Shown: one piece after another, positions 2,927 through 58,280 of the stretch
How the letters are laid out: each line of letters opens with the position of its first letter
Position numbering within the stretch: the first letter of the stretch is position 1
IMG/VR virus record: IMGVR_UViG_3300009169_000019
Span: 8,360 to 72,359 of that record
Source: a virus
Taxonomy: Duplodnaviria > Caudoviricetes
DNA: 64,000 nucleotides
Reading direction: 5' to 3' (one strand)
The notes under the pieces: generated by a model
The model's input: the letters and a program-made list of their open reading frames with translations, nothing else
What the model was told of the DNA's origin: nothing
Databases searched by the model: none
Position numbers and translations under genes: made by a program

Positions 2927-3029
2927 TCAATTAATTCAGTTTATAGAAAGCCTGGAAGCTACTTGTACAGATAAAGTTACAGTAGCTAAAATTGTAAAAT
3001 TTTTAAAGGAAAACAATATATGGAATTAA
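2907..3029 (+). CDS. hypothetical protein (40 aa, MKELTNSQLIQF...), not in the ORF track
   Basis: Translated by hand; overlaps both neighbours by a few bases, as is usual in this operon. Confidence 0.45.
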   Translation: MKELTNSQLIQFIESLEATCTDKVTVAKIVKFLKENNIWN

Positions 3030-8325: not shown

Positions 8326-8967
8326 ATGGCAATCATTGGCATTTCTGGTAAAATATCCAGTGGTAAAGATACCACTGCAGATATTATTAAATCTATGGAT
8401 GTAGATAGCAAGTGGCAAATTAAAAAGTTTGCATATAAACTTAAACAAATAGCTAGTATTATTAGCGGTATTCCAATACATTTATTTGAGGATCAAGGAT
8501 TTAAAGAAACATACATGTCAGATGCATGGGATCTTTATATTAAAGAAGACAAAACATTAATTTCTGAAAATGGAGCATATAATTCTCAACGACATGTTAA
8601 AATAAAAGTGAGAGATTTTTTGCAAAAAATTGGTACAGAAGCAATGCGAGACGGGCTTCACTATAATACTTGGGTGAATGCACTTATGGTGGATTATAAA
8701 AAGACTAAAAATAGTGATGAAGAATATGTAATGCCCAACTGGATTATTACAGATGTTAGATTCCCAAATGAATACGATGCTATTAAAAAACACAATGGTA
8801 TCATAATCAGAGTGAATAGAGATAGTACAATTACAAATAATCATGTGAGTGAAACGGCACTTGATAATCATGAATTTGATTATGTAATAAATAATAATGG
8901 ATCAATTTCTGATCTTTATAATAATGTTACAAACTTTTTAAAACAATATTATGCTAGAATTTTCTAA
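8326..8967 (+). CDS. deoxynucleoside monophosphate kinase
   Basis: IGISGKISSGKDT P-loop; FAYKLK; RDFLQKIGTE; ITDVRFPNE; HVSE. Confidence 0.9.
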   Translation: MAIIGISGKISSGKDTTADIIKSMDVDSKWQIKKFAYKLKQIASIISGIPIHLFEDQGFKETYMSDAWDLYIKEDKTLISENGAYNSQRHVKIKVRDFLQKIGTEAMRDGLHYNTWVNALMVDYKKTKNSDEEYVMPNWIITDVRFPNEYDAIKKHNGIIIRVNRDSTITNNHVSETALDNHEFDYVINNNGSISDLYNNVTNFLKQYYARIF

Positions 8968-11524: not shown

Positions 11525-14500
11525 TTATCTATTTGTTGTATTAAATCTTATATCCCAATCTTTTCTAAAATCATCATCAAAAATTGCTCTTATTTGAATT
11601 CCTTCTTTAAATATAGGCATCATTTTTGATAAATATTTTGCAGGTTTTGCTTTTTCTAAAAGATCTTGATCATTTAAAACAAAACCGTATCCTTGACTAA
11701 CAACCGATTCAGTAAATTTAAAAAAATCATCAGCTAATCCAACTACAGGTAGTGGTTTGTTTACAAGATTTGACCAAGAAGGAGCACTATAAAAGAAAGA
11801 AAATTCATCAAAATATTTTCTAAATGCTCTTGCAGCATATGTTCTTAAACCGACATCTTGATCATCGTCATCATCATCACTCAATATTGTAAACATCAAT
11901 GCTCCAATACCTATAATCATTAAGAATTCTCTGTACATTGATTTTATATTACCAATATACATATCTATAAATTCACCTTCTGTTATATTAAATTCTTCAC
12001 CTTTTTCAATAGCTTCAGCTTTTAATAATAAATATTTTTGTTTAGCTGCTTCTATCATATTTGTTCCACTTGAATTAATTATTCCAGTTAATAATTGGGG
12101 TGCTCTTTTACTAAATAATTCTCCAATCCATAAATTAAATTTACCAATTGTATGCACTTCAAGATCCTGATCATATTTTAATTTTCCAAATCTTTCTTGA
12201 ACCATTTGTGGCATCCATGATCTAAATTGCATAGCCATAGAACCTAACATACCCATTCTAATATTATTAATATCATCTCTACTAGAGTTACCTAAAACAT
12301 TTTTGTTTACTTTCTTAATTTTTAATCTAAATCTACCCCATTGTTCACTTTGTAAATCTATTCCGGGTATTTCAATTTTGTCATTAACAATTTTAGCAGT
12401 ATTATAAATTGATTTTGTATCTTTTAAAGTTTTTACTTCATCTTCTATTTTTTTTCTAATAACATCTTGTTCTGCCTTAGGAAGTGAATAAAATGATTCA
12501 TTATATTTATATTTGGCTTTAACATATGTTTTTATATCTACAATCTTTCCATTTTCATCAACCATATGATTTTTCATTATAGCAATTGCAATAGGATATT
12601 GTACAGCTTTATCACTTGCTCTCATCATAAAGAATGCTTTATCTATGGTGTTAGCATTAATAATACTTGAAACAGAAAGTTTATTTATCATTGCTTCTTT
12701 TCTATCTTCTATTAATACATCTGCAACACCTAATAGTCCAAAAGCAATTTCATTTCTTTTGGTTATATCATAAATAGAAGAAGTCCAGTCAGCTGTGTTA
12801 AATATAATACCTTTACTTGCCTGGAAGAATGCATTACCTGTACCACCCACAAAGTTTGCTGTTCCTGATAAAGGATTTAATGCAAGTGTTTTAAGAGAAA
12901 AGAATCTTGTCATCCATCCAAGTACTTTATGTGCAGAATATTCTTTATCTCCAATCTTAAAAGCTTTATCTTCCATTTTACCGGATTGAATATTATAAAA
13001 ATAATAATTAATAAAGTCTGAAAGTAATTGTGAGTTTATTTCGTTTCCTGGTATTTCTTTTTTAATTCCGCTTTCAAGTACAGGTTTACCAAACGGATTG
13101 GTCTCAATGTGAGGTTTATTTTTTTCAACAAACAATAATAATCTTGCTTTATCTTCAATTTCAGACATTGACTGATAATTAGCTAATTGTGCAGACCAAA
13201 TACCAAACACTCTAAACAAATCCATACTCTTTTGAGAATAATCTAATGTACCATCTTCTCTTTCTATACCCATATCTCTAATAAAATGTGTAGGTATAGA
13301 ATGTTCAATAGCACCTGTGATCGGATTGATTTGAGGAGCAAATGGTGATTCTCCAGATTCAACTTCTAAACTTTCAAATATTCCTTTTTTAGAAAACATA
13401 TCACCACCAAAAACAAATTGTTCTAATTTATTTCTACTTATATTAGGAATAAATGCGGGAGAATAATCATCAATTAGTCCTGCTTTATTAGATCTTTTTA
13501 GTAAATCCTGAAAAAAGTTATAAGTTTTTAAAGCAATCGGACTTGCTTCTAGTTTTTTCCATTGTTCAGTTTGCCATTTTTCTTTTGGTTTTAAATATGA
13601 ATTTAATACTTTTTTACCATTGTAATTATCCATGTTTAAATAAGCATTCTTATTTTTATTTTTACCGCCAATATTTACATCATGTTTTTTCAACCAGTTA
13701 TTATATGCTTCTTCCTGAAGTTCTTTATTTCTTCTTTCATTTTTAGAATCATACACAATAGTTTCATAAAACTCTTTTTGTCTTATTTTATCTTTATTGA
13801 ATTTTTCTTCATTAAATTCTGTGTTGTCAATTAACCATATACTATCTTCTGATTGCACAGCATCTTGCATTTTTTTATAAAACTCACTTTGATATTTTTT
13901 TAAAAACTTACCGGTCCATTCGCCTTTAGCATTATAATCTAAAAGAGGTTTAAATAAATCTTTATCAGAATATCCTTTAGAACGAGCCCATTCAACATAT
14001 TCTTTTCTTAATGTAGAAAGTTCTTCATAATCTTTATTAAATAAGTTATCTCTTTTATTTTGAGCATCACCAAGAATTCTACTAAACACCCTAAATGCTT
14101 TTTGAGGAATAGTACTTAATGAACTAAACATACCCGTTAATTTAGATATTTCGGTTTCAGCATCTAACAAATTTACAATACCTGTTTTTTCTTGTGAAAA
14201 TTTAAATGCAATATTTTTAATTGCATTTTGCATATCACTAAGTACAATGTCAGCAGAGGTATTCATTTGGTTGTAGTCATTTATTATTTCATCTACAACT
14301 TCTTTAACATATTCTTCTTTTGTTTCTTTTTTAATTTTTTTAAGTTCATTCATGTAATTATTAAATACACGTGTAGTATTTGTAAATACTTGTAATATTT
14401 CTAATGATTCAAGAGCATCTTTTTCAGTGAGATTGTTACTTTCAATTAATTTTTTATATTTATTAATTTCATAATTACCAAGGTCAATAAACTTTCTAAT

Positions 14501-16813
14501 ATCACCTCTGAGTTGCAAATCTCTTACGGCGTTTTTATATTTAGCTAATTCTATTTGTTTACGCCTACGTTCATCTTCCGTTCTATATTTTTTATTTTCA
14601 AGAATATCCATTACACTGCTTAACTTCTTAATGTATTCAGATAGTTCTTTATCAGCAGATTTTTCATCTCTTAATGTAACGGGAAGTAAATAATTTTTAT
14701 TATCAGGAATTGATGAAAGATCAAAACTACCCATTTCAATTTTATTAATTCCTTCAATAGTTCGTTTCTCTTCTTTTCCTGTGTATGAATAAACTACTTT
14801 AATAGGAATAGCCCTTACAAGTCCAAAGTTTTTAATGTCATAATGTGTTTGAAGAATTTTTTTATACTCTTGTAACTGAATTCTATACATTGTTTCTTTG
14901 TATGATTTTAATTCAGTTTGTTCTTTTCCAATTTCTTGACTCTTCCAATCATATATGTTTGCTGTACCATCTGGTTCAATTACTAACAAGTCAATACTAC
15001 CAGCAACATCTTTTATAGGGTCATATATTTTAACCTCACGCATGAATTTAGTGCCGGGAGCATTGTAGTTTTCAATTAAATCTTGTATATATTTTTCAAA
15101 TAATTTATAAGGATCTGTGTCAAAATATTTACTACTAGAAGCAGCTGGCATTTCTCTTACAAAATGTGTTTCAGGATCAACATAAACGTCTATTATATCC
15201 TGCATCATTTCGTGAATTACATCACCATAATCAGCTTTGAGAAGATCTATTTTCTTTTGTATTTCGCTTCTGTTGTCATTTGGAAATTTACGTTTTAACC
15301 ACGCATCAACATACTTTGAAGTAACTGAAGATTTTATATCTTTACCATTAATGGTGTAGATGTGTCTTTTTTGTTTGGTTTTAGGATCAACGCTGTTGTC
15401 TAATTGAATATCTTTTTGATGTTGTTCAAGTTTTTCTATTCCTTCTAATTGATAATACTCACCTGTTTCTTGAATATTATCTTTAGATAAATTACTAATA
15501 TCTGCTTTTAAAATACTTTCTGCTGATTGAACAAACGGATCTGTAACAGACTTAGTAAATAATTTCTTAATAAAATTTAATAATTTATCCCACCAATTAT
15601 TAAATTCTTTTATTTTAGATTCTGACTCACCAACAGCAGAATGTTTAACAATGTGTTGTGCAATAAGTTTACCTATTGCTTCTTTTTTAAGTTTATTAAT
15701 ATTAAGACTACCGTCTTTATTTCGATATTGACTGTTATTTCTATATGTCTGAACTGTGTCTTGGTATATTTTATATCCCGTAATTTTAGACATCATTTCA
15801 ATAAAGAGAGGATTATTCTCACCCAACATTTCAACAAAAAAGTGAGCAGCTTCTTCCGGTAATGTTGTTATATCTGCTTTACCTTCTATCACTTCAACTA
15901 TCTTATTAAGCATATCTGCTTTAGCAACAGCAGATAATTTATTACCTTCTGCATTTCTTATTTCATCTACAGATTTAACAGATACACCAATCTTTTCTAA
16001 GAAGTTTTGTACTAATACATTTAATTCTTTATTGACTTTTTCTGTAGATTGTGTTTCTTTTTGAAGATATATTTCTTCTTTATTTTTTTCTGTTAATGTT
16101 ATTTCATTCCATGTATTACCATATTCATCTGTAATTTGTTTTACATTCTCTTTACCGTATTGTTTATTAAGAACATTTTTTACAGTATTTTCATAAAAGT
16201 TATAAATAGGTTTTAAAGCACCAAATCCTTCTGTTTCTACTCTTTCAAGTTCTTGTTCAATTTGTTCTTTTTCACGTTTAGCTTCTTCAATTCTTCTTTC
16301 TATATTTTCAGGGTCATTTATTTCTCCATCTAAAAACTTAATCCTATCTTCTTTCTGTTTTTTAAACTCTTCTAAAGTAGTATGGCCCTCAACTTTACTT
16401 GCTGTATTACCACTAGGAAATAATACTTTCTCATATCCTTTTTTAGCTGCATTTTGAATTATTGCTTTTATACCAAAAGTAATCCAGTTATCATTTTTAT
16501 GTAACAAAGCTAAAAATTGATTATCTCCACCAGCATCTATAAAATCTTCAAAAGCTTTATTATAAACATTAGATGAAACTTCTACTTCATCTATTAAGTA
16601 AACCTTTTTACCATTATTATCAGCAGGTATAATAATATTATGAGGAACTCCTCTAAACTTAAAATTATTTCTAAGTTTTTGAAAATAATCTGATTGATAC
16701 TCTTGAACTCTAAGAGTTCTTGGTTGATTTATAAAATTAGGTTTAACAAACTCTTCTATAAAAGCTTGTTTATCTTTATATTCAACACCATTAAATATAT
16801 ATTTACATGCCAT
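11525..16813 (-). CDS. giant virion/ejection polyvalent protein (1762 aa): N-terminal 'QSD' domain half, zincin-like domain, PD-(D/E)XK nuclease, C-terminal hydrophobic region
   Basis: RVQEYQSD...KGYEKVLFP; LPEEAAHFF; AGSIDLL...IYDWKS...IQLQEY; FLMIIGIGALMFTIL near the C-terminus; lies downstream of the vRNAP gene. Confidence 0.75.
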   Translation of the reverse strand: MACKYIFNGVEYKDKQAFIEEFVKPNFINQPRTLRVQEYQSDYFQKLRNNFKFRGVPHNIIIPADNNGKKVYLIDEVEVSSNVYNKAFEDFIDAGGDNQFLALLHKNDNWITFGIKAIIQNAAKKGYEKVLFPSGNTASKVEGHTTLEEFKKQKEDRIKFLDGEINDPENIERRIEEAKREKEQIEQELERVETEGFGALKPIYNFYENTVKNVLNKQYGKENVKQITDEYGNTWNEITLTEKNKEEIYLQKETQSTEKVNKELNVLVQNFLEKIGVSVKSVDEIRNAEGNKLSAVAKADMLNKIVEVIEGKADITTLPEEAAHFFVEMLGENNPLFIEMMSKITGYKIYQDTVQTYRNNSQYRNKDGSLNINKLKKEAIGKLIAQHIVKHSAVGESESKIKEFNNWWDKLLNFIKKLFTKSVTDPFVQSAESILKADISNLSKDNIQETGEYYQLEGIEKLEQHQKDIQLDNSVDPKTKQKRHIYTINGKDIKSSVTSKYVDAWLKRKFPNDNRSEIQKKIDLLKADYGDVIHEMMQDIIDVYVDPETHFVREMPAASSSKYFDTDPYKLFEKYIQDLIENYNAPGTKFMREVKIYDPIKDVAGSIDLLVIEPDGTANIYDWKSQEIGKEQTELKSYKETMYRIQLQEYKKILQTHYDIKNFGLVRAIPIKVVYSYTGKEEKRTIEGINKIEMGSFDLSSIPDNKNYLLPVTLRDEKSADKELSEYIKKLSSVMDILENKKYRTEDERRRKQIELAKYKNAVRDLQLRGDIRKFIDLGNYEINKYKKLIESNNLTEKDALESLEILQVFTNTTRVFNNYMNELKKIKKETKEEYVKEVVDEIINDYNQMNTSADIVLSDMQNAIKNIAFKFSQEKTGIVNLLDAETEISKLTGMFSSLSTIPQKAFRVFSRILGDAQNKRDNLFNKDYEELSTLRKEYVEWARSKGYSDKDLFKPLLDYNAKGEWTGKFLKKYQSEFYKKMQDAVQSEDSIWLIDNTEFNEEKFNKDKIRQKEFYETIVYDSKNERRNKELQEEAYNNWLKKHDVNIGGKNKNKNAYLNMDNYNGKKVLNSYLKPKEKWQTEQWKKLEASPIALKTYNFFQDLLKRSNKAGLIDDYSPAFIPNISRNKLEQFVFGGDMFSKKGIFESLEVESGESPFAPQINPITGAIEHSIPTHFIRDMGIEREDGTLDYSQKSMDLFRVFGIWSAQLANYQSMSEIEDKARLLLFVEKNKPHIETNPFGKPVLESGIKKEIPGNEINSQLLSDFINYYFYNIQSGKMEDKAFKIGDKEYSAHKVLGWMTRFFSLKTLALNPLSGTANFVGGTGNAFFQASKGIIFNTADWTSSIYDITKRNEIAFGLLGVADVLIEDRKEAMINKLSVSSIINANTIDKAFFMMRASDKAVQYPIAIAIMKNHMVDENGKIVDIKTYVKAKYKYNESFYSLPKAEQDVIRKKIEDEVKTLKDTKSIYNTAKIVNDKIEIPGIDLQSEQWGRFRLKIKKVNKNVLGNSSRDDINNIRMGMLGSMAMQFRSWMPQMVQERFGKLKYDQDLEVHTIGKFNLWIGELFSKRAPQLLTGIINSSGTNMIEAAKQKYLLLKAEAIEKGEEFNITEGEFIDMYIGNIKSMYREFLMIIGIGALMFTILSDDDDDDQDVGLRTYAARAFRKYFDEFSFFYSAPSWSNLVNKPLPVVGLADDFFKFTESVVSQGYGFVLNDQDLLEKAKPAKYLSKMMPIFKEGIQIRAIFDDDFRKDWDIRFNTTNR

Positions 16814-16814
16814 T

Positions 16815-17552
16815 TTATTCTTTTATTTTAATATGATTCCAATTTTGACCAGACTGAATAGCTTTAATTGTTCTAAGTTTTACGTTATACTTATCAGCTA
16901 TAATTTGCTGTTTTACTTTATCTTTCAAAAGATATTTAATTTCTTTTACTTGTTTTTCAGTAAGTTTTGAAAATCCATTATTACTGCCTTTAGAAATAAT
17001 ATCTGTAACAATATTATGTTTCTTTTTTAATTGTGTAATTACAGAGGGTGATAAATTGTGTTTTTCAGCAATTATATCTTGTCTAATCCCAGATTTTAAA
17101 TCTTCTAAAATTTGCAAATTTCTTTGTTCTTTTTGTTGTCTAATAAAAGCAGTTTGTTCTCTGGTAATTTTTAATTTATCTTTATGTTTTCTTCCTACAG
17201 AATCCCAATATTTACTGTTTGAGATTTTTCTTTTTTCTATTGTTTCTTCAGATTGTTTTATTCCTAAACAATTACCTGCTACACTGCAAATATTATATTC
17301 AGGTTTTAAACTATCTAAATAAAATTGTTCTCTTTCAAGTAATAAATTTTCATCACAATTTTCTAAAATAGAAAATTCAAAATTATCTGAACCATATTTA
17401 TGAAAAGCTCTTTGTAAAGCTAATGAATGATGTACATTACATTTTAAATCTGTTAAATGTCTTTTCCATCTTTTATTAAGTCTTATAGAACTTCCTATAT
17501 AAGATTTTCCATTTATCTTATTTTTTATTTGATATATTCCTGATGTTTGCAT
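16815..17552 (-). mobile_element. free-standing GIY-YIG homing endonuclease gene (start revised to MQTSGIY)
   Basis: SGIYQIKNKINGKSYIGSS...RW..H...LQRAF...EQFYLD...YNI, a NUMOD3-like segment and two HTH-like C-terminal repeats. Confidence 0.9.
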
Positions 17553-17557
17553 AACTA

Positions 17558-17589
17558 CAAATATACAACAAAATTCTGAATGTACCGAA
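17558..17589 (-). promoter_or_regulatory. Bacteroidota-type promoter of the GIY-YIG gene
   Basis: Minus strand TTCG-N20-TATATTTG, ending 5 nt before the ATG, which implies a near-leaderless mRNA. Confidence 0.6.
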
Positions 17590-17590
17590 T

Positions 17591-19693
17591 TTAAGAACAT
17601 TTTATTTGAAGAATTTTACTATTTTCCATGATTTTCAACAAGTTATCAATATCCTGTTCTTGGTATTGCGCTTTTTCATCTGTTCTACTCCACATCAATC
17701 CTTTATCGGTAGCAAACTGAGCATGTCCTTTTATAGAAGGTTTAATTAGTGGTGTAGATATTTCTTTTTCTGTATAGTTGGTACCTCCTGGAACTGTTAG
17801 GTTAGAGTAATATTGAGAAGGGTTTTGTTTAAAATTATTTAAAGCTTTTTCAAATTCTTCTTTCGAAATTAACACTTCTTGTTCTTGAATATTACTTTTA
17901 TAGTATTTTATACCATTTACACCCTTTACTATCTCATAATTAGTGTCATTAAAGTTAAAAGCTGAATAATTATCTTTAAAAGGGTCTGTAGTATAAGCTG
18001 TATTAATTTCAACAGTATAACTATAATTAGCAGCAAATGATGTTAACTTTTCTTCAATAGTATTACCTTCTGATTCTTTTAATAAATTAACTTGATCTTT
18101 AGGTATTTGAAAATCTTGTTGTATTTTATTCCAGAATGTATTATTATTACCTATTTGTTTCCAAAGTTTATTTATTTTATCTAAATTATTATATAAGTTT
18201 GATACAACTTTAAATTGATATTGTAAATTAGATTCTTCACCTATTGATTTATTTTTAGGAAGTTGAAAATATATAAATTCATTTTTTTCTATATCTCTTT
18301 TATTAAAGTTAGAAGTTCTATAATCTTCTTGATCTTTTTCACGTTGAAACATTCTTTCATTTACATCATTTGGTGAAAGTGTTAATTTACCAAAATATAT
18401 ATCTTGTACTGATGAAAAACCACCTACAGATTGTTCTTCTGATTCTGAATTGTATATAAAAAAATCAACAGGTATATTATATTGAGCAAGATTATTTATT
18501 TCTTTTTCAGATAAATTAGAACCATCTTCTTTAGTAAAAATAGTTTCTTTTGAAGAAATATGTTTAATATTTGCAACAACCTCACCATTAGAATTAACTA
18601 AAGTATATTCTGTTAACCAACCTTTATTATCTCTATTTAAATTTTTAAAAGTATAACCAGAAGCAGGTATTAAATAAGCATATGTTTTATATTTTTTTTC
18701 AGAACTACCCCAACCATCATGTATTGGTACAGCATTTATATCTTGCATATGAGAATTTATTTTCTCATATTCTGTAACGCTATCAACAGTAAAATCTAAA
18801 TCATGAATAGGTGCATTAGAAGGTCTATAAATAGTTTCACCTTGACCTGCAATAGCTAAACTACCTACAAGTTTATAATTAAAATCTTTACCTGTGTATC
18901 TACTAATTATATCTTTGGCTAAATTATTTCCTGAAACAGCTTGTTCATAATTTAATTTTTCAACTTTAGAATTAGGTGAACCAATAAAATTTTGATTTTC
19001 AGTTAATATATTAAATGCAATTTTATCAGCAGCATCTTTAAAATAACTTCCTTCTTTTAATACAAATGGTTTTGTAAATTTATTTAAAAATTCAGTTACT
19101 GCTTTAAGTATTTTTAATAATAAATTTCTTTCTTCTTTTGTTTTATTTGTCCATTGTTGTAATAAAGATTCTGTAATAAGTTTACCTAATGCTTCTACTT
19201 TAACTTGTTTTTCATTATTATAAACTGGCATATACTCATCATATACTGCCTGATATCCTGACCAATCTTTAATGTTATCCATTAAATCTCTTATTAATGG
19301 ATGTGTTTGACCCATTAACATTACAGTCATATGAACAGCTTCTTCTGGTATTGTATCTAATTTTTTTTCTACAGAATGATATATAATTTTATTAAGAACA
19401 TCTGTAGCACCTAATGCATCAACTCCCCATCTTTCTTTAAAGTTTTTTATTTCATTAGATTGAACACCATATCTAGAAAGAAAATTTAAAAGTTTTGCAT
19501 CTAATTTTTTATCAGCTTCTTTTATTTCTTGAGATGTAAGTTGATATTGTACGTCTACTTCAATTGAAACTTCATATTCATTTTTTGGAACAACTCCTTC
19601 ATACTTATCCCATAAGTAATAAGCCATATCTTCACCTCTAGAAGATACTAATGATTTCCAAGAATCTAAATTTTTATTAGGACATGTTGCCAT
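17591..19693 (-). CDS. virion polyvalent protein (700 aa): zincin-like domain, nucleotidyltransferase-like domain, first half of the 'QSD' domain
   Basis: IPEEAVHM; LVGSLAI...IHDLDF...VDFF...REKDQED; YSNLTVPGGTNYTE...GHAQF...WSRTDE. Confidence 0.7.
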   Translation of the reverse strand: MATCPNKNLDSWKSLVSSRGEDMAYYLWDKYEGVVPKNEYEVSIEVDVQYQLTSQEIKEADKKLDAKLLNFLSRYGVQSNEIKNFKERWGVDALGATDVLNKIIYHSVEKKLDTIPEEAVHMTVMLMGQTHPLIRDLMDNIKDWSGYQAVYDEYMPVYNNEKQVKVEALGKLITESLLQQWTNKTKEERNLLLKILKAVTEFLNKFTKPFVLKEGSYFKDAADKIAFNILTENQNFIGSPNSKVEKLNYEQAVSGNNLAKDIISRYTGKDFNYKLVGSLAIAGQGETIYRPSNAPIHDLDFTVDSVTEYEKINSHMQDINAVPIHDGWGSSEKKYKTYAYLIPASGYTFKNLNRDNKGWLTEYTLVNSNGEVVANIKHISSKETIFTKEDGSNLSEKEINNLAQYNIPVDFFIYNSESEEQSVGGFSSVQDIYFGKLTLSPNDVNERMFQREKDQEDYRTSNFNKRDIEKNEFIYFQLPKNKSIGEESNLQYQFKVVSNLYNNLDKINKLWKQIGNNNTFWNKIQQDFQIPKDQVNLLKESEGNTIEEKLTSFAANYSYTVEINTAYTTDPFKDNYSAFNFNDTNYEIVKGVNGIKYYKSNIQEQEVLISKEEFEKALNNFKQNPSQYYSNLTVPGGTNYTEKEISTPLIKPSIKGHAQFATDKGLMWSRTDEKAQYQEQDIDNLLKIMENSKILQIKCS

Positions 19694-19694
19694 A

Positions 19695-22600
19695 TTAACA
19701 TATTGATTTTAAGATGTTACCAATTTGAAGAGGAGTGTATCCAATACTTTCTAATAATTTACTATTTATTTTTGAAACAGGATAAGAAACTGCGTCTTTT
19801 AATGTAATTGTTTTACCACTTACAACTTCTGCACCTTCAACACTAGTGGATTGTTGAGATGACAACAAACGTTGTTGAGCTAACTTCAATCCTTCTAAGA
19901 AAGCTTTATCAATTAATTCATTTGTATTATGTGTAAAGTTTTCATATTGAAGAAGTTTTTTAGCAGCTTCTGAATTAGGATTTTGAATAAAGCTTTCTAC
20001 AACTAAATCTTTCATTATTTGTAAATTAGCACGTTTACCTACCTCTGTAAGTTTAGGAGCTATTTTTACACCATATCCACCTTTTGCTACATAAGCATCG
20101 TAAGTAACTTTGTCAAACTTACCATTTTTATTTGATTGATAAGCATGTTCTACACTTCCGTATTCTCTAGTGACACCATCAATACTTTCATAACTAAACT
20201 TTCGTGGAGCTAAATTAGATAATATTCTTGTAGAAGTGGTTGATTCAGCTTGTCCCCAATATACATTAATAGTTCCTTTAGGTTGAACACTAGCGGATGG
20301 TTGGACCACTTTAGTTGCAGGAGTTATATTATAAAGATGAACGCTACCTCCATCCATCAATGTTTTACCTGCATATTTAGCACCTTTTTCAAAATTAGCC
20401 CATGTACCAAATCCCTCAGCTTTAGCAAACTCATCTTTGGTGTAAGAAAATCCATTACCTACAACTTTATCTCCCTGAAGTTTTACAAACCCTCTGTGAG
20501 TGATATTAACTAAGTTACCTTTATCTGTAGTGTATACACCATCTCCTTTATAGAAAGAATTATGATAACTACTGTTTCTTACAGTGGTTGTTGCTTGTCC
20601 AGTTTGTACCCAATCTTCAATAATATTTAATTTAATTTCACCAAGGGGTTGTTGTTTTTGTATAGATGTTTGTAAAGTTGGTTGATTTAATATTGTAGCA
20701 GCAGCTTGTGGATTTAATTGTTGTAATGTTTGTATTGCCGCTTGTGTAGCTTCTTGAAGATTACGTAATGTCTCTTGTGTTACTGCTGGAACACTTGCTA
20801 AAGAACTTATTGAAGGTGTTTCTTCATATTGAGAAGGTTTTTTATATCCTTCAGGAGTAACAATATTATTCTTTTTAAGATTAGATTGTAACTGATTTTC
20901 CATTGATGTTTCGGTGTAATTTCTTCCATCACCTGAAGCAACAATTGGTGAATAAATAGCGTATTCTCTTTCTTTAAATTTTCCTTGAATTGTTTTGTAA
21001 CCAATTCTTTGATGAAGATAAGTGTCAAATGCTTTATAGAGCTTACCAAATTTCTTCAGTTTTTCAATCTGACTATCAGTTATTCCATTCTTACGTTTAG
21101 AAGTTGCAATGTATTCATAATTTGAATCAGAGTAATCTGTATCTAATAATACATTACCTGTATACTTTTCAAACTTTTTAAATTGGGGTCTTATTACAAT
21201 ATTTCTATCAGATTTATTATTTTGATGAAATTGCTTCCATACCAGATTAGGATCAATAGTAAATTCACTATTCATATATACATCTAATATACTATTAACC
21301 ACTTGACTATACAAATGTGCGGGCAATATTTTAGTATAATTAATTGTACTATCTTGAAGACCTGACTGAAGAATACTAAAAATAGAAAGATTGTATACAA
21401 AGTTTTCAAGTTGTGTATTACCAGAAGCCTTTGCGTAATCTAATAAATTGTTTATAGACTCAATTAATACATCATTTTTAAATGTAGTCATTTTATTTCT
21501 AAACAGTTTAATATTATCTTGATCATCAACATTATTGGCAAATATAGGTATTAGTTCTTTAATTGCTAAATTTTGAGATATGTTATAATCTTCAGAATTT
21601 TTAAGTAATTGTAATTGTTTAGTGATAGAATTTTCTCCCATCATTAATTCTTTAAACTTAGCAGATATATTTGTTTCAATCTCCCCAAGTTTAAAATTTG
21701 TATTCTGAATAACATATGTAATAAAAAATCTCTGATATTTATTTATTAATAATGACTTATCATCATTGGAAATAAACTTTTCTCTGTCTTCTAAAAACTC
21801 ATACATTTTTTCAAATACAGGATATGCTCTTCTATCTAATGAAATAAACATGTTTTCAAATACGGAAAAAAGATCTTCTTTTTGTTTTTTCATTTCCCCA
21901 ATAAATGTCTTATCTAAAATAGAATCCGGGTTCTTAATAAATCCTGCTTCAAGCATTCTATTCCATCTAATAAGCTGCAATTGATTTTCAATAATAGTTT
22001 TTGTTTTTTTATTATCATATCCTATTGCACCAATAAATTCAGTAAGATAGCTTGACTGCTCAACATAATCTAAATAATCTGTTAATAACATAATCTGCAT
22101 AGCTGCATCATCTTCTGTAATCTTATATTTAGGATTATTTAGATTTTTAATTGCATTCTTTAACTCATCTACTGTTGGCTTTTTATACTTGTTTTTGATT
22201 TCATTAATTCCTTGAAATAATTTTTCTTTAAGAGCTTTTATTTCCACTCTTAAATTAATCACTTCTTGTTCATTAAGACTTTCTGTAGTATTTAATATAT
22301 TTGTTTTTTCATTAATCTGATCAATAACAGAAGACATTTCATTATTGTATATTTTCACATATTTAGAAATACTATTAATAAAAATTTGCTCTCTAAAAGT
22401 TACATTTTTATTTACTTTTCTGAAAATTGAGTTATTCATGTTTTCTGACTTCATAAAATTCTCAACAGCAGGTTGATTAAATAAATATGCAATTTCTTTC
22501 ATTGGCACCCCAAGCTTTTGTAAATAGAACCAAGTGCCAGCAGTATTAAAATTAATATTTAAAGAAAATACAAAAGGATCTTTAGCAGCATCTACAAATC

Positions 22601-25600
22601 CAGAAAGTGCTTCAGATATATTTTCAGAAATCCATCTACCTTCAGCATCTGTTTTAGCATTTATGTAAAACTCACCTAATTTAGACTCGTTATGAGAAAG
22701 ATTAATACTTATTGCTTTTACATATTTTCCATCTTCTGTTTTAAATTCGGGATCATATTTAACTAAGAATTTCATTTTTGAAACTTCATACTTACCAGAT
22801 AATACAATATCTGAAATTTGTGACATAATGTGACTTGTAGATTGCAATGCTGCAATACCAACAAGACGCTTACCAGTTAAATATCTTTCACGTGTTTCAG
22901 CTGATTGAATAAATTTACGAAGAGCAAGCATAGAATTTTCAGCATCTTTCTTTCCTTTAAGATCATTAATTTCATTAGCTAATGATTTAAGAGTGGCTGT
23001 ACTATTAGGCATTATAAGCTGACGATAGTTTTCTGGCATGGAAATTAATTCTTCCATAGTTTCTCTTAATTCATTTTGAAGAGATTCCATACTATCTTGT
23101 CCGATTTCTACATATTCAATACTTTCAATAATGGGTGTAAATGCTTTATTATTAATCCTATTATTCTTAATAACATCTTTACGATATTTATTATACTTTA
23201 TTAACGCATCTTTAAATGTAGTGTAAAAAATATAATCTTCACCAGTGATGTTTTGCGCAACTAAATAATCTTCAAGATCTCCAAATTTACCCAATCCGCT
23301 TCCAGCTGAAAATTGATTTAAATCTTCAACCATGTCTTTAAATTCTTCTTCCGTAAGATTTTTAATTTTATTTTTTACAGTTTTTGGAAGATCTTTATAA
23401 TAGTCAGTTGATTTAAAATCATTTATTGTTTCCTTAGTGAATCTAGTATATTTTAATTTATAATTAGGAATATACAAATTCATTTTATCAATATCAAAGT
23501 CAGATCCTGCCTTACCTACTATTTCAGTAGGCACTACAATCATATCTCCACTTTCTCTTGGTAAAAATCCTTTTACTACTATATTTTCAATAGAGTTCAT
23601 ACCTTGTGTTGGAATACGAAAACCAATCATATTAAGAAGTCTCTTATCCATGTTTGCTGGTATTTGATAAACCCCATTTACAAGTTTCATTCCAAAATCT
23701 TCAGGTTCAACATTTTCAAAATACCAGGGAATATAAATTTCCATTTTGGAAATCTTTCCATCTTTTAATTCATAGAATTTTAAATCAGATGATGTAGGAA
23801 TAAGAGATTTAGTTTCATCTTCTGTTAACTGATCATCGGGTTTCATCTCAGTATATACACCGTCTTTTAAATACATCATGGTTCTGTTGGTAGAATTGTA
23901 TCCCGTAAATGCAACCTGTACAGCAGGTTTACCAAACATTTTAGCAGATATAACTCTGCTATCCATTATAGAGTTTAATATATTATCTATTTTATCTCTA
24001 TTAGCTAATGTATCAAATCTATATAACAATCCTTTAGTGTTAGGATTTACATCAAGTGCATCAACTAAATTAGAGGGAAGATCTCGTTTAGTTAATTCTT
24101 TACGTAAAAGATTAATCATGTTAGTGTAATCATTTACGGTGTAACTACCATCTTTTTCTTTTGTTATTCCTAATTCAACTAAAAGTTGTTCTTTACCTTT
24201 TTTAACTATATTTTCAATAAGTCTATTATAATTTGTAATTAATACTTCTGCTCGATCATTAATATATTTACCATTCACTTTAAAATTAGACATGATAAGT
24301 TTTGTAAGCTGAGTACCTCTAACTACTTTGTTTTTATAAACAGCAGGTTGTTCAGATTGAATACCGTAAAATTTAGTATATAGTGATTGAACTGGTAATC
24401 CAGAAGGTAATTGCCATTGTTTATTTTTTAATTCAATATTAACTGCACCATCATTTTTAATTATAGAAACAAACTCACCAGTTTTAGGATTAAGCATTGC
24501 CCCCACTTTTTCACCAGATTCAAATCCAATAACATCTATTTGATTATTTTGTGCAGCTAAATATAACTTTTCATATTCAGTGCCCTCAACACTTCTGTAA
24601 AATTTAGGTTGTACCGAGTGTTTTAAAAATACAGTGTGCATCATTGATGTGTTCACTGCATATCCAAAGTATTGAGGTTTAATTACAGGAAGAGGCACGT
24701 TAGGATTGCCTTTTTTAAGAATTCCTTCTGCCCATTTAACTGCGTATTTTCCTTTGTTATATGTTTTATATGCAGGATCTGTTTTAGATTTATTAGATCT
24801 TGCAACAACTTCATATGCAATTTCATAATCTATTTGATCTAATTGTTTTTGAGAAAGCTTACCACTTAAAAATAACATGTCCCTATACATATCACTCATA
24901 ATCCAACCTTGACCATCTGCCTCATTTAATTCTACATATGCTTTAATTTCTCCTGTAAATTTACCATCTTTAAGAATAAAGTTCTTAAATGTACCATCTT
25001 CATTAAAATTTGCACCCACTCTATTTTGTGCTTCTGTTAAAGATATACCATCTAAAAGAATCGACTTATATAAATTTTCAGCTATCTGCTTGTAAAAATT
25101 AGATACGGCAGTTACATCTTTAAATGATATATTTTTAAATGTTTGAATCTTTTCAGAAGCTCTTATTTTTTCATCAAATCTAGGAATTAAACTATCCATT
25201 TTAGATATAATGTGAGGATTGTCTACTATCGCATCTTTGGACGAATTGATACCATTAGCACGTTTTGCCAAGTCTTTATAAAGAGCAGGGTGTCCATATA
25301 ACAATTTATGTTGTTCTGTAACTGCAAGTTCTTTATTTATTGTAATATATTTTACAAGTTTTTCTAATTGATTTCTTGTTATGTTACTACTATCAATTTG
25401 AAAATAATCATTAAGCACTTGAGTATTAATAGCATCCGTTGTAAATTGATCTTCTGTAATCTGATTTATAATTCCAAGTTCTATCAATGCATCAATTGTA
25501 AAGTTTACAGTTTCTTTAAGATCGTTTTTAATAAGTTCTTTGATGACATTATCTGCTAAAAATTCTTCTTTAGTTATTTTACCAGCAAGTAAGTTTTCAA

Positions 25601-28600
25601 ATCTAACCTGTAATCCTGATTTTCTTTCACCTGATTTTTTAAGTTCCTTTTCTGTTTTAAATTTAAGAACATCTTTAAAGTGACCAAGATATTTTACATT
25701 ATCACTATAATATTGAATATTCGATTTTAAAGCTTTTTCTACTATTGCGGCATCAATTTCATCCTCTAAATGTTGTAAATAAATATCCAACACCTTATTA
25801 AAGTTAGGATTGTCAATATCATATTCAGCTATTCTTGCACTAATAAAAGGTTTAGAAAATGTTAATCCAAATTCTGAACTCTTATCTGAATTAATAATTG
25901 TAAAATAAATTGGTTTCAATCCTTCTTTATCTGCATTTATTATATAATTAATTTCTTGCATTATCCTGTCAGGATATGTAAGATTAGCTGTATCAACACC
26001 ATTTGTATCCATTGAAGTTACACCAGAAATAAGGGTGTAATCAATGTTATTTTTTTTATTACCATTTTCATCAAATATTAATCCTCCTGGTTTTAACAAT
26101 TGTGAATTAGTTTGATACGCAAATACATTCACAACTTGTTCTCCATTTTCATCATATCCCGCTGTACCAAATTGAGGATTCGATGCTACAAAATCAGCAA
26201 GTGTTTTAGATTCATTTAATGAAGAAAGAACATAGTTTATGCTAGCAGGCAATGTAATAGAATATTGAGTTTCTCCAGAAGCTGTTGTATGAGTTAAGAC
26301 TGAGCTATCGTATCTCATTATTTTCTCAATATCAATTAGCTTTTTCATATTACCAGACTCAGGTCCAATATTAGAATATAAATCTGCAATATTGATTATG
26401 CTATTTTCTTCATTACTAATAATTGAATTTTTAATTTTTATAAAAGAACTAATAACATCAGATCTTTTGTTTATTATATTCAAAGGAATATCAGAAATAG
26501 TTTTGTTTTCTTTATATTCAACTCCAGTAAATGCTACACCCATATCTTTTAAATACAGTAATGCTGTTTGAATAGATATGTTTTTATCATTATTATTTTT
26601 TAATTTTAAAAACTCTCTGTATTGAACGCTTTTTTTATCAAATACAATATTACCTGTATCATCAATTCCTAAAAGCTGATTATTATTTTCTTCTTTATCA
26701 GTTACAAGCTTAAGATTTCTTGGAAGTTCTCCCTGCCATTCTTCACGAATTCTATCTTCATTTGTGCTCTCTAAAGCATTCATTAAATAAATTGAAGAAT
26801 CTTCGTTGATGATAAGTTTTGAAGGTGTATTTTTTTTATTCATTAAGCTTTTTTCAAAGCCAATCAACAATTTTAAATCATCAATGTTTATATTTTCCTT
26901 TGTAAAATAATTAATTGCTTCACCTGAGTATTTTAATCTTTTTTTCAATTTGTTAATCCATACAAAATTAGGTTTGTATTGATTAACTTTTTTATCGAAA
27001 TACTTTTCATCAAGTTTTTTAAACATTGCTTTTAAAGCATCAACAAACAACACTTCTCCGTTTTGATCAACTTCTAATTTAGAATATGTACCATTCAATT
27101 CATTTAAAAGTAAATTTAATGTTGCATCATAATCAACAAGTTCAGGTAAATTTAACGAATTTTTCTTAGTGTATATTTGATTTGTTTTAGAATCATATAT
27201 ATCTTTAGTTAAACTACCAATGAGAATTTTAAATGACGTAGCAGTTAATCTTCTAGGATCTATATAGATTGTGTCTCTAATACCAGAAGTATCAACTACA
27301 TCTAATTCATTAGGAGCACTATCTTCTTCAGCACCATCTTTTACTTCTGCAAATTGTAATCCATACTTTTGTAATGATTGCTTTAATATATTATATACAA
27401 TTGTTGAATTTTGAAATGCATTTTCAATCATTGACGCATATCTATTCTTTTCACTAAACTTGTTGTATGCAATATTTTTTATTTCATTGTTTTCTTCTAC
27501 TGTTAAATTTCTACCGATTTGTTTTTGATAATTAATAAAAGTTGGTGCAAAATAATTTGTAAAAAATATGGATCCCTGTCCAAACAATTGTTCATAAATA
27601 TTAGACATACTTGTTTCAAAAAGCTTTCTTAATATTTTATTATTGTTTTCATCTTCTGTAAGAAGAGATTCAATATTTAAAGAAATAAAGTTTCCTTTAT
27701 TATCTGTAAATAAATTAGGATTATGAAGATTCTGAAAGAAATATGAACTTAACCCATCAATAAATTGTGTAGTAAATTCTTGTGTTGTATTTGGTACCAC
27801 CTCTCTATATGATGTACCCATTTCAGAAATATCCCTAGCAAATCTTACATTGGAATAATTACCTGCATTAATTTTATTAAAGAGTTTATTAATGGCGGAT
27901 TCACCTTCAGATTTTTCTTTTTTAGAAAGACCTACATATTTTTTTATTGTGCTCCAAAGATCTTTAAAGAACTGTTTAATTTTTCCAAAAAATCCTTTTT
28001 CTTCAGTGGATATTTGTTCTTGTTCAGAAAGAATATAATTTCTAAATTCTTCAGCAAGCATTTCTCTAACATCATAGTGTGATGCTTCAGAATAATTTTT
28101 TGTTTCTTTTGAGAAAGGATTAGTAAAACTTCCTTCTCTATTTCTAAATTCTTCAACAAATTCATTCTGTTCTTGTACAGTTAGATAGGCATTCCAAACG
28201 GCTTCAAATGCTTCATGAAAACCGGTTCCTATTTCTGCATTTTCATATATATAAACAATACTATTTTTAAAAGCACCCCAAGCTTTTCCATCAATTAATT
28301 CTGCAACTTTAACAACTTTAATATTTGGAAGTTTTGATTTAAACCATTCTTCTACTTTTTTAAAATCTTCAGTTTGTATTACAGATTGCTCAAGTTGTAA
28401 TCTATATGCTTCATTGGGTTTAACACCACCTAATCCAGCACTAAGAATATTTACACCACCACTTTGATTAAATGCTTTTAATGCTTCTTCTTTTTCTGAT
28501 TCAGAAAGAGGTTTTGGTTGTTCGGGAGAAACAGGTTCTACAAAAATACCCTGAGCTTGTATTTGTTCTAATCTTTTACCAATTGAAATAGGTTCAGTTT

Positions 28601-31600
28601 CAGCATTAATATTTTTACTGACTTGTTCAGCTACTGGTTGTGATTCGGTTTTAAAACTAAATGTAGGAATTTGTCCAGGAATTAATGTTATAGATTCTGG
28701 ATTTGTATTTTGTTTAATTTCGGGTTGTGCTGTTTCTTTTTCAATAGACGACACATCAGTAGCTGTTCCAAATTTAAATATTGGAATTTGACCAGAAACT
28801 AATTGAATTGCGGCACCACCAACTCCAGGTATTGTTACAGCAGATTGATTTTTATAATTAATAATAGGTTTAAAATCATCATCAACATTTCTATATGTAA
28901 GATTTGAACTTTTAACTTGAGGAGTGTTCACATCTGTTTCACTATACAATGGTGTATTGGTGTATACTACAGGAGTAGATGTTTTAAATAAATATTCTGT
29001 GTAATTTGAATATTCCGCGTCTATAATTACATTATTATCTTTATCTACTACCGGAACATAGAATGGAATATTTGTTTTTGTTAATAAAGAGTTATTAACC
29101 TGATGTCTTAATTCAGAAACAATATCTTCTTTATTTTCTTCAATGATAGATGGGTTTAAATCATACGGAGTTCTACCTCTATATAACATTCCAGTTTGAT
29201 TAATGTAGAACTTATTTTCCGATTCAATAACATTATCATCAGTTGCCCAAAATACCAATCCTTTAAAATATGATAAAATTAAATTTTTGTTTGCTTCTTC
29301 ATCGGTAGTTAATTTTTCAACTTTTTCTTTCTGATAAATTTTTGCATAATATTTAAGCAGACTAATAAAGTTATCTTTTTCTTCTTGGGTTAGCTGTCTA
29401 TTAAACAATCTAAAAATCTGACCATCATCTCTTTTCATATAAAGACGACCGGGCTTAATACCATCAGATTTATCTGTAGCAACTTTTAGTTTAATACCTT
29501 GACCATTTGGATGTCTTAAATTAGCAAAGTCAGTTGTATTTTCTTCAATAACTCTACCTTGTAATTCAAGTTCTTGAGGTAATCCATTTTCTCCCATTGG
29601 AAGCATCACTTGCTGACCTACAGTTTTTCCAGTGATAGGAATATACATATCAGCATTTTCAGAAACAGTAGCTCTGATATTTTTTACAAAATCTCTATAT
29701 TTAAAGATCATGTTGGTTATCTGCTCTTTTGTAACACCTTTTGTAGTAAATCTTTCTTCCACCCATTCTACCGCACTGCTTATATCACCAAATAATTGTT
29801 CTTGATTCATCCTCAAACTTGTATAAACAATATTATCAGATGTAGGATTATCTATTTTGTTTCCAACTATATCAACCGGAAAATAATTTTCACCTTCTTT
29901 TCTAACTACAACAACTTTAATATCATTTTCATCAATAGTAATATTATAAGGATCATTAGCTCTTGTTACAGGCATTAAAAAATATTCACCACCTTCTACG
30001 TTTACATTATCAGTAAATTTAAAAAATCTAGCATTACCGCTTTCTTGATTTATTTCTGTATCATTTTTATCTATATAATGTCTTCCAGTAGTAAGATATA
30101 AACCTGTTAAACCAATAAGAGGTCTTTTAAATTCATCTTCGCTTACAAATAAATCATCACCATTAACAACTTCTACAATATTTGCATCAGGATTTAATTT
30201 TGCGTTTTTAGCTCTTTCAGCAGTTGTGGTTTCAAATTGAATTCTTCTTCTTTCTTTTATATAACCAACTTCTTCAAATAATTCATTTTGAATATATTTT
30301 AAAAAGTCAACTCTTTCTTGAAGTGTAGATAGTTCTCCAAGTTGTGCCGATGCTTGTTGAAGTCTTTGTAGTTTTGGATAGAGCTCATTATTAATTTTAT
30401 CAAATGCATTTTTTGCATTTTTAAAAGCACCACTTAAATTAAATACTACTTGACTATATAAATTATTTTGAACAATCCCCTTTCGTAAAAATTTTAAAAA
30501 TTCTATTTTATCTGCATCTTGACTATTATCTTCTATTTCTTTCAAATATTTTGTAAGCCATGCTTTGCTATTATCACTATTAAGTATATCAATTACATCA
30601 ATATATTTACTTAATTTTTTCCAAATTTCTTTTGCTCTTTCAGAAAATTCTTTAAACTTTTCAATTAATTCTTTAAGTTCTTCAATTTCAAACTCCGTAT
30701 CTTCTACAAGTTTATCTACCTGTTCTTTGCTATATCTTTTTGTTATTAATTCTTTTCTATAATCTTCAAGTTTAGATTCAGCTTCACCATAAATTGTACC
30801 AGTTTCATCTGTTTGAAAAACTTCTTTAGTTTTTTCAATTTCATCTAATGCATTATAATAGTTATTTCTTGCTTCAACAAGAGATTCATTTAATGTATTT
30901 AAATCTTCTAATTCTTCATTTAAATTAACAATGGTAGATTCAATAGATTGAATAGCATTTGGAAAACTATTAATCTTTTCTTTCATTTTAATATACTCAG
31001 CCTTCTTTCTACCTGTTTTCGAAGGAGGATTTTTTTCTATATAATCTTGCGCACTAGCAAGTTCTTCCTGAAATAATTCTAATTCAGCTTGTAAATCCTG
31101 AAGTCTTTTACTGTTGCTTTCTTTTTTAGCTTTTGTTTCTTCAAGCTTTTCTTCAACACGATTAATTAAATTAACTAATGCTGATTGTTGATCTTCTAAA
31201 TCTTGAACATTTTGTTTTTCTGCTTCTTGTAAAAGAATTTCTTTATTTATAGAATCAATAATTAATCCAAATCCAGAAGGCTGTCTTTTAAGAGCATATT
31301 TCTCATAATACTTTAAATTGAAAGGTACTTTAATAACTTTCATTTTACTCTTAGAATTAGGGTTTTTATACTGCATGTAGAGTTTAAAAACTCCATCTTC
31401 AGTGTATTCACCAACAAGAGCAGCATCAACACTTACACTTGTATCTGTATAATCATTTTCGTCAAGTCTATGAGGCTTACTATATTTCTTATTAATTTTA
31501 ATTCTAAACTGCTTATCTCTATTTACATAGAAAAACCTTTCAAATAAATCAAGATTTTTAAAATTTTTAAGAAGACCAAACTCATTAGCAAATTCTTCTG

Positions 31601-42947: not shown

Positions 42948-42951
42948 ATTA

Positions 42952-42968: not shown

Positions 42969-42987
42969 ATTATTTTATATTAAACTA

Positions 42988-43003: not shown

Positions 43004-43022
43004 TTAATTTTATTGAGATGTC

Positions 43023-58278: not shown

Positions 58279-58280
58279 TA

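Follow-up and report, generated by a model that had tools for sequence, protein, structure and literature searches.

How could the separately translated pieces of a giant phage cargo protein be held together? This question is raised by the window analyzed in this study, a stretch of 64,000 nucleotides (nt) that covers positions 8,360 to 72,359 of the IMG/VR virus record IMGVR_UViG_3300009169_000019 (Duplodnaviria; Caudoviricetes), a 72-kb viral record with a completeness estimate of 56%. Its block of giant genes belongs to the crAss-like virion RNA polymerase block, which comprises gp67-gp66-gp65 in phage phi14:2 and gp47-gp50-gp49 in crAss001. Crassvirales are the most abundant human gut phages, and their huge cargo, including the virion RNA polymerase, is packed and injected.

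In this study, the crAss-like virion RNA polymerase/cargo polyprotein was found to be encoded either as one giant gene or as two to five pieces. In the split form, the upstream piece carries a lone cysteine 1-11 residues from its C-terminus and the downstream piece carries a lone cysteine at position 3-7; exceptions occur in the related loci L022, L030/L032, L025 and L034. These paired cysteines may bear on how the cargo is packed and injected. Judged from their distribution, they are on balance probably an end-to-end link for packaging and ejection, in the simplest case a disulfide.

Cysteines at the gene junctions of the window

The cargo block contains three giant open reading frames (ORFs), with protein lengths given in amino acids (aa):

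19695..34733, minus strand: virion RNA polymerase polyprotein, 5012 aa, ending in ...LKSIC; its sole cysteine is the last residue.
17591..19693, minus strand: middle piece P0001, 700 aa, reading MATCPNKN...QIKCS; cysteines at positions 4 and 699 only.
11525..16813, minus strand: last piece P0003, 1762 aa, starting MACKYIFNG; its sole cysteine is at position 3.

Together these ORFs contain 4 cysteines in 7,474 residues, and all four lie four residues or fewer from the two junctions (TGT codons at 19698-19700, 19682-19684, 17597-17599 and 16805-16807). By simple arithmetic, the chance that four cysteines would each fall within the four 4-residue terminal stretches is about 2e-12. A single nucleotide separates the stop codon of the 5012-aa ORF from the start of the 700-aa ORF. 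Cysteine is absent from both outer ends of the chain, the N-terminus of the 5012-aa protein reading MESNLK and the C-terminus of the 1762-aa protein ...FNTTNR. An earlier note on this DNA had reported cysteines at the junction termini, with none at the N-terminus of the first protein or the C-terminus of the last; counting the cysteines of each protein bore out both observations.

Cysteine is far rarer in the cargo block than in the rest of the window proteome. Most other ORFs of at least 150 aa contain 0.6-4.7% cysteine, and two cargo-like proteins of 1078 and 658 aa upstream of the polymerase contain none; a 213-aa ORF at 8326..8967 also lacks cysteine. When the window's other 22 ORFs were inspected by eye, an N-terminal cysteine was found in 1 and a C-terminal cysteine in 3.

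The assignment of the block rests on similarity to cultured phages. The 5012-aa protein carries a DFDxD motif at residue 3745 and matches phi14:2 gp66, the protein of PDB 6vr4 (BLASTP, E 1.5e-35), and crAss001 gp50 (E 4.7e-24); its residues 2151-2312 align with the C-terminal portion of crAss001 gp47 (BLASTP). Since gp47 and gp50 both align to it, the 5012-aa protein corresponds to a fusion of these two crAss001 proteins, without a cysteine at the internal gp47/gp50 boundary. When this protein was scanned in four parts, Pfam gave no family with an E-value of 0.001 or better. Both the 700-aa and the 1762-aa protein are similar to crAss001 gp49, the latter at E 8.5e-9 (BLASTP) and with a PD-(D/E)XK nuclease domain (PF12705, E 4e-7). 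Residues 47-219 of the 700-aa protein are paralogous to residues 247-436 of the 1762-aa protein (BLASTP, E 9e-16). Pfam and PHROG searches with the 700-aa protein matched no family, and a tblastn search of a phage database gave no direct match; its relatives came from viral contigs. The cargo proteins of phi14:2 are found in virions according to the annotation of its record ("experimental MS/MS proteomics", i.e., tandem mass spectrometry).

Distribution of the cysteine pair in related viral contigs

Two scans of IMG/VR contigs provided 89 loci (L001-L089), the second scan contributing the best 80 of 124 relatives. Junctions were collected between ORFs of at least 300 aa with at most 0.3% cysteine and gaps of at most 1500 nt, a filter that selects long, cysteine-poor pieces and leaves out short or less cysteine-poor ones. 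Of the 78 junctions that passed, 62 are unique when judged by their terminal strings. Both cysteines are present at 57 of the unique junctions, neither at 4, and the C-terminal cysteine alone at 1 (Fisher p = 9e-6 for these counts as they stand). The single-cysteine case, L053, is a start-codon miscall, in which the caller took an upstream methionine overlapping the preceding gene by 59 nt; in its close relative L001, ...KLKECY is followed by MACINPN. Among the junctions with neither cysteine, those of L023 and L047 lie at the upstream end of the series and that of L049 at the downstream end; the split in L034 is unexplained.

A typical relative encodes a protein of 1,800-2,300 aa with one cysteine at its very end, followed by a protein with one cysteine at position 3-6. 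The 152 unique giant proteins contain 198 cysteines in 262,880 residues (0.075%, vs 1.56% in control ORFs), and 146 of these lie in the first 8 or last 10 residues. The paired genes are mostly 1-20 nt apart, and the pair is present at no fewer than six different junction sites. Lysine and arginine are modestly enriched near the terminal cysteines (20.3% vs 13.5% background), which was not used as evidence. Among other ORFs of the loci, an N-terminal cysteine was counted in 20 of 97 and a C-terminal one in 28 of 97; this control is contaminated by short chain pieces and mechanical antisense ORFs and was not relied on, the 22 other ORFs of the window being the cleaner control.

The pair in named and cultured Crassvirales

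The same pattern was found in 14 named genomes, which represent Steigviridae, Intestiviridae, Suoliviridae and Fipvunavirus. Their polymerase blocks have 18 true junctions, each of them with the pair, in two cases after the start codon is re-read, and no cysteine occurs at the N-terminus of the first piece or the C-terminus of the last. Representative termini are as follows:

phi14:2: gp67, 1797 aa, ending in ...NTIC, with its sole cysteine last; gp66, 2180 aa, MACK...QECK, with cysteines at 3 and 2179; gp65, 1421 aa, starting MSCK, with cysteine at 3.
crAss001 gp47: 2341 aa, ending in ...RCNS, with one cysteine, third from the end.
crAss001 gp50: MSKRC...KICGANTLYEL, with cysteines at 5, 1334 and 2404 of 2412.
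crAss001 gp49: 1349 aa, starting MAKKC, with cysteine at 5.
p-crAssphage: gp45 ending in ...FSCM, gp44 starting MSCG.
Fpv1: ...IKNCN, followed by MACT.

The earlier note had named a lack of co-occurrence across genomes as a finding that would overturn its proposal; the two cysteines instead occur together at 57 of 62 unique junctions and at 18 of 18 named ones. Its further idea, that the chain could be linked in gene order, does not hold generally. The pair is kept in crAss001, cr128_1 and cr116_1, where the gene for the first piece and that for its presumed partner lie on opposite strands. This indicates that the pair is not a by-product of stop/start overlap and is independent of gene adjacency.

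The cysteine pattern also corrects annotations. The annotated start of crAss002 gp33 (MVLDYS...; L095, NC_055828.1, approximately 12086-12190) lies 32 codons upstream of an in-frame methionine, Met-33, from which the protein would read MSCTPSN, in keeping with the N-terminal pattern of the family. In cr10_1 (L102, NC_055875.1, from approximately 18100), the 4460-aa gene is followed by a long open frame missing from the annotation, MKIICPNLKNKE, with the start MKIICPN. A GC-rich hairpin that resembles a terminator by eye was noted in the 170-nt gap after gp32 of crAss002. The giant genes of cr4_1 (L097) and cr115_1 (L103) contain 38 and 80 in-frame stops, respectively, under translation table 11, and the cysteine pair is kept in both. 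Stop-codon recoding is known in some crAss-like phages, and such in-frame stops are expected.

Coupling of the pair to the split state

The key result of this study is that separate translation goes with the pair, and that a peptide bond or RNA splicing makes it unnecessary. Fused proteins in L047 (3501 aa), L048 (3802 aa) and L015 (2682 aa, open at both ends) span the junction between the polymerase and the next protein and contain no cysteine at all. L029, L065 and L079 are fused at this junction and broken further downstream, and there the pair is found at the new break. The two cysteines are thus gained and lost together (57 junctions with both, 4 with neither, one artefact, and fused forms with none). 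The terminal sequences follow the same pattern: in four fused forms (L047, L048, L040 and L015), BLAST matches the downstream protein only from approximately residue 19-50 on, and no BLAST counterpart of the upstream C-terminal module was found in them.

Where an intron bridges the junction, the downstream piece lacks the N-terminal cysteine in both cases found. In cr108_1 (L090, MT774385.1), a group I intron at 17001-17319 (Rfam, 80 bits, E 1e-20) joins coding sequences of 2967 and 798 aa that are annotated as separate "hypothetical proteins" and together form the polymerase gene; no cysteine flanks it on either side. In cr116_1 (L100, MT774389.1, 15088-15930), two group I half-matches of 34.7 and 32.3 bits (E 7e-7 and 4e-6; gathering score 50) flank a 215-aa ORF with a LAGLIDADG-like LIGDG motif, read by eye, and the coding sequences of 2507 and 833 aa are probably exons of one polymerase gene. 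Its downstream exon has no N-terminal cysteine, yet the upstream reading frame ends in one.

The earlier note had pictured a portable connector that lets a giant gene be broken almost anywhere. The observations fit a connector that allows breaks at several places, as at least six sites carry the pair and fused versions of those sites do not.

Conserved modules around the first junction

At the polymerase/700-aa junction, the cysteines are embedded in conserved terminal modules:

19698..19817, minus strand: polymerase C-terminal module (GKTITLKDAVSYPVSKINSKLLESIGYTPLQIGNILKSIC); cysteine codon 19698-19700, with the cysteine invariant in 19 aligned relatives (alignment A3).
19559..19693, minus strand: N-terminal module of the 700-aa protein (MATCPNKNLDSWKSLVSSRGEDMAYYLWDKY...); Cys4 codon 19682-19684.

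The consensus of the A3 tail is LKDGxxYxxSxINxxMLExxGYxPxEIGKILKSIC. The alignment of the N-terminal module (A4) has the consensus MATCPNKNLDSWKxLVxxRGEDVAYYLWDKY, in which columns C4, P5, N6, N8 and W12 are invariant. A profile search with A4 against 1.84 billion representative proteins gave 469 matches at E 0.001 or better, of which the best 150 were inspected. Among these 150, 131 include the module (the first four profile positions), and the cysteine is present in 131 of 131. The module begins at residues 1-5 of the target in 130 of them; the other begins at residue 19 and is a start miscall. In the remaining 19, the match starts at profile position 13-52, and 14 of these 19 show another start of the M-x-C type within the first 7 residues, as read from the printed N-termini. 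The 45 long matches among the best 150 contain 1-5 cysteines each, with exactly one in 26.

A proposed disulfide link and its alternatives

The preferred reading of these observations is a covalent link. Inside the virion, the two cysteines would become joined by a disulfide between separate proteins, and the pieces would follow one another head to tail as they do in the fused polyprotein; in the window, the order would be 5012, 700 and 1762 aa. At the polymerase/700-aa junction, the C-terminal module of approximately 40 aa and the N-terminal module of approximately 45 aa would probably dock first. Packaged as such a chain, the pieces could be present in a fixed ratio, pass through the tail as a single strand and come apart on reduction in the host cytoplasm. 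We infer the disulfide, the docking, the role in ejection, and the place and time of bond formation from the sequence pattern.

Features of the crAss001 virion described in passages of PMC10172136 are compatible with such a chain: disulfides occur in the gp57 dimer and in tail hub and ring proteins; mass spectrometry of virions detected gp47, gp50 and gp49, of 262.5, 276.9 and 154.5 kDa, respectively; partial unfolding is required for the cargo to exit via the tail; and packing, together with contacts between the proteins, probably determines the order of ejection. More tentatively, and with our own judgment leaning slightly against it, the link may be a general and reusable repair at the protein level, in which ends newly made by a mobile element or a rearrangement gain or receive the cysteine pair together with short docking tails, a disulfide-linked chain of approximately 0.7-0.9 megadaltons, in place of the individual proteins, is packaged and threaded, and reduction both releases and activates the polymerase. 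In that case, the pair would constitute a minimal, natural and portable tip-to-tip protein connector.

Several findings weigh against a disulfide chain. Many junctions share ancestry, so the 57 paired junctions are not independent events. Phage assembly takes place in reducing cytoplasm, and many of the hosts are gut anaerobes. Predicted docking counts both for and against. It concerns the single pair modeled as a complex, the last 50 aa of the polymerase with the first 60 aa of the 700-aa protein, from alignments built in this study. At least 95% of contacts were shared among the three runs, the pLDDT (the confidence score of the predicted structure) of the partners was at least 64, and the docking score was 0.41 against 0.02 for the best control. 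The tool rates this as "weak support". In its calibration, 58 of 80 solved complexes earned that mark, as did 2 of 110 mismatched pairs; only 7 of the 80 solved complexes passed at scores of 0.60 or less, as did both mismatches, so that a score of 0.41 lies in a range more often wrong than right unless the guess is already likely. The cognate docking proposed in the earlier note is weakly supported by this score.

Exceptions to the pattern also count on this side. Outside the survey filter, in L022 and L030/L032, a piece with an N-terminal cysteine (MSCIYK and MTKMSC) follows an ORF of 594-666 aa (L022, 2297-4297; L030/L032, 1335-3119) that stands between chain pieces and has a CxxC at residues 42-45 and no terminal cysteine. 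In L025, the C-terminal cysteine lies 23 residues from the end, and a cysteine-rich 420-aa ORF stands between the pieces; L034 is split with neither cysteine. A search for introns at L022, L023, L025, L034 and L054 found none at E 0.01 or better, and these exceptions are unexplained. Orphan cysteines near the C-terminus occur in p-crAssphage gp47 (...KQSCR; L094, 1201-3774) and crAss002 gp30 (...FRCGGKKKIA; L095, 1391-3064), proteins at the position of crAss001 gp45 for which no partner with an N-terminal cysteine was found. The description of the proteins in the earlier note as otherwise cysteine-free fits the window and many relatives, whereas some gut crassviruses depart from it: p-crAssphage gp44 contains 8 cysteines, the large pieces of cr8_1 and cr271_1 contain 15, and cr116_1 contains 10. 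Therefore, a purge of cysteine to avoid scrambling is not universal. Finally, according to parts of the phi14:2 polymerase report (bioRxiv 10.1101/2020.03.07.982082), gp66 alone transcribes in vitro in dithiothreitol, and the link is therefore not needed for catalysis.

The alternatives survive in the order in which they are taken here, and the counts weigh most strongly against the last three. First, the terminal modules might dock non-covalently, the two cysteines jointly binding a metal ion or acting as a redox sensor that times polymerase activity. The conserved modules at the polymerase/700-aa junction, the reducing assembly compartment and the weak docking support agree with this. Yet the alignments contain no further conserved histidine, cysteine or aspartate ligands, the invariant residues being L, G, G and C on one side and C, P, N, N and W on the other. 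At many junctions, only 0-5 residues follow the C-terminal cysteine and the flanks are unconserved; a simple thiol link therefore suits them better than a metal site, and we regard the metal or redox explanation as unlikely.

Second, each terminal cysteine might tie its own protein to some third partner in the virion. Candidates are the portal, the inside of the capsid, a different cargo protein and a second copy of the same protein. The orphan cysteines of p-crAssphage gp47 and crAss002 gp30, the unpartnered N-terminal cysteines of L022 and L030, and the many structural disulfides that parts of PMC10172136 report for crAss001 virions would all be at home in such a scheme. It does not account for the joint appearance and disappearance of the two cysteines (57 both, 4 neither, 1 miscall), for their absence from the outer chain ends in the window and the 14 named genomes, or for a number of cysteines that tracks the number of breaks, and it is improbable.

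True covalent ligation, with a thioester formed at the C-terminal cysteine and attacked by the N-terminal one in an intein-less trans-splicing reaction, is a very remote prospect and pure inference: the layout is formally that of a split intein cut down to its two nucleophiles, but Pfam detected neither a Hint nor an intein domain, the C-terminal cysteines of the window have 0-1 residues after them, no HN motif precedes the downstream cysteine, and no catalyst is known. That the pattern is functionless, one ancestral junction inherited or a consequence of the nucleotide needs of stop/start overlaps, is hardly credible even though many junctions are homologous and most pairs lie 1-20 nt apart, since the cysteine is kept while its position drifts (1-11 from the end; 3-7) and its flanks diverge beyond recognition, at least six different sites carry the pair, it persists in genes on opposite strands and is absent from fused and intron-bridged forms, and the giant proteins contain 0.075% cysteine against 1.56% in control ORFs.

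The disulfide proposal is directly testable in cultured, structurally studied phages (phi14:2, crAss001 and Fpv1). If true, it would explain how giant genes tolerate splitting, inversion and invasion by homing endonucleases, and the cysteine pair would suggest a very small, naturally occurring means of coupling proteins by their ends.

A homing endonuclease gene at the second junction

The earlier note treated the 700-aa and 1762-aa genes as direct neighbors and overlooked a 261-aa ORF between the stop of the first and the start of the second. The features of this region are:

16815..17600, minus strand: free-standing GIY-YIG homing endonuclease gene P0002, 261 aa; its likely true start is MQTSGIYQ at 17552.
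17594..17656, minus strand: C-terminal tail of the 700-aa protein (QDIDNLLKIMENSKILQIKCS), with the Cys699 codon at 17597-17599; identical in L002.
16135..20651, no strand assigned: mosaic patch of approximately 4.5 kb (blastn vs L003) that holds both junctions and the endonuclease gene.

P0002 matches GIY-YIG in Pfam (PF01541, E 1.9e-11, residues 21-103) and homing endonuclease in PHROG (E 4e-27); a weak Pfam match to HTH_23 falls under the curated cut-off. A group I intron at this junction was considered and rejected, an Rfam scan of 11000-35500 having given two chance-level matches only; scanned in the same way, cr108_1 and cr116_1 did yield introns. The endonuclease gene is therefore free-standing, and the 700-aa and 1762-aa proteins are truly separate.

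The split lies in an apparently recombinant region. In blastn comparisons, the window and L003 are 99.3% identical over 23969..20651 and 99.5% identical over 16135..11530, and the 4.5 kb between these flanks differs, a pattern that would fit gene conversion. The L003 equivalent of the 700-aa and 1762-aa proteins is one unsplit ORF of at least 2306 aa with a single cysteine at position 4 and none at the second junction. The tail, the endonuclease and the MACKYIFNG start of the window recur in L002 at approximately 80% DNA identity, and the upstream genes of L002 differ. These patterns would fit a cassette that spreads by homing with co-conversion of its flanks. The 700/1762 split may be a recent event tied to the free-standing GIY-YIG endonuclease, and new splits may acquire, or travel with, the same pair of cysteines.

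The break follows the motif GGTNYTE...GHAQFATD and lies in a linker of very variable length, which comprises approximately four residues in L064; compared with the fused forms L003, L004 and L005, the C-terminal tail of the 700-aa protein falls in this hypervariable linker. The conserved domain that surrounds the junction was modeled with AlphaFold2 (alignment A5, with L064 as the first sequence). The mean pLDDT was 61, with the motif segment 48-127 below 50, and the model was uninformative as to whether the break falls within a loop of a single domain.

The ORFs inserted at such junctions in relatives encoded GIY-YIG in all seven tested, and their DNA-binding tails differ. The inserted ORFs of L022 and L025 matched no Pfam family. 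In L066 (5054-5542), a ferritin-like gene (PF00210, E 5e-20) stands exactly between the polymerase end (...NNIKCM) and the start MLICPN.

Relation to known systems

The rule that breaks of the crassvirus cargo polyprotein are marked by a cysteine pair appears new, and several of its components are already known: ejection proteins without cysteine, homing endonucleases that leave genes in pieces, and translocated toxins whose chains are held by a reducible disulfide. The literature covered yielded no account of the terminal pair, with supplements such as the extended tables of PMC10172136 (disulfide list, mass spectrometry coverage) outside its scope. In that paper, the word "cysteine" is absent from the main text, and the searched passages and section 15 are silent on cargo cysteines. 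Its structural disulfides concern the same virus order and, in the parts consulted, lie in resolved structural proteins; the cargo proteins gp47, gp49 and gp50 lack clear density.

The closest parallel in composition is provided by N4-like phages, whose giant virion RNA polymerase and ejection proteins (N4 gp50; DEV gp71-gp73) are, like those of the window, nearly free of cysteine. Portions of PMC11445570 give 0.00075% cysteine for gp71 homologues vs 0.865% proteome-wide, and cite the proposal that this suppression reflects passage through the disulfide-forming periplasm. The N4-like polymerase is in one piece and these proteins have no terminal cysteines, whereas in crassviruses the depletion is broken by exactly one cysteine per broken end.

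Genes in pieces through free-standing homing endonucleases are reportedly found in Aeromonas phage Aeh1, where nrdA is split by mobE, and in phage T4, where mobA accompanies gene 39/60. There too a free-standing GIY-YIG or HNH endonuclease gene is said to lie between two halves of a once continuous gene that still cooperate, the layout of the window's second junction. Their halves reportedly reassemble non-covalently, or ribosomal bypass repairs the break; the crassvirus pair, in contrast, is present also at old junctions without an endonuclease, and we know of no conserved cysteine pair in these split genes.

Split inteins resemble the proposed link in that separately made halves are rejoined after translation, with cysteine nucleophiles on both sides of the break. 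They possess a Hint fold and intein blocks, whereas crassvirus junctions have neither and at most a few residues past each cysteine. A split intein was rejected for the window itself: no Hint or intein Pfam family was found in P0001 or P0003, the tails are too short, and only MA or MAT precedes the downstream cysteine. In two-chain AB toxins such as diphtheria toxin, one disulfide holds the chains together and is reduced after translocation, so that, as in the proposed link, a disulfide tethers the translocated chain and cytosolic reduction frees it. These toxins are made as one polypeptide that is nicked within a disulfide loop, whereas the crassvirus link would join separately translated proteins tip to tip and in series within the phage particle.

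Other cysteine-bearing proteins of the window

A 92-aa ORF of thioredoxin fold lies at 3020..3298 on the plus strand (PF00085, 32 bits, E 6e-9). Its active site, WCQPS, has one cysteine in place of CxxC. The annotated thioredoxins of p-crAssphage, cr108_1, cr128_1 and cr8_1 have CxxC, and the "truncated thioredoxin" of p-crAssphage has CNVS. A monothiol thioredoxin might bear on mixed-disulfide chemistry; nothing ties this ORF to the junction cysteines.

Two further regions on the minus strand are unusual in their cysteine content. At 40086..46913, a 953-aa protein has cysteines only at 28, 35, 279 and 282, with a short peptidase/ferredoxin PHROG match at 220-275, and a 1296-aa protein has cysteines only at 25, 28, 44 and 47, two CxxC pairs that are zinc-ribbon-like; the latter weakly matches "minor head protein and DNA pilot" (phrog_220, E 5.5e-6). 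At 56761..59756, adjacent cysteine-rich proteins of 491 aa (4.7% cysteine, starting MGCPCNK) and 505 aa (3.2%, ending in TACPCEPCAPIT) contrast sharply with the cysteine-free cargo block.

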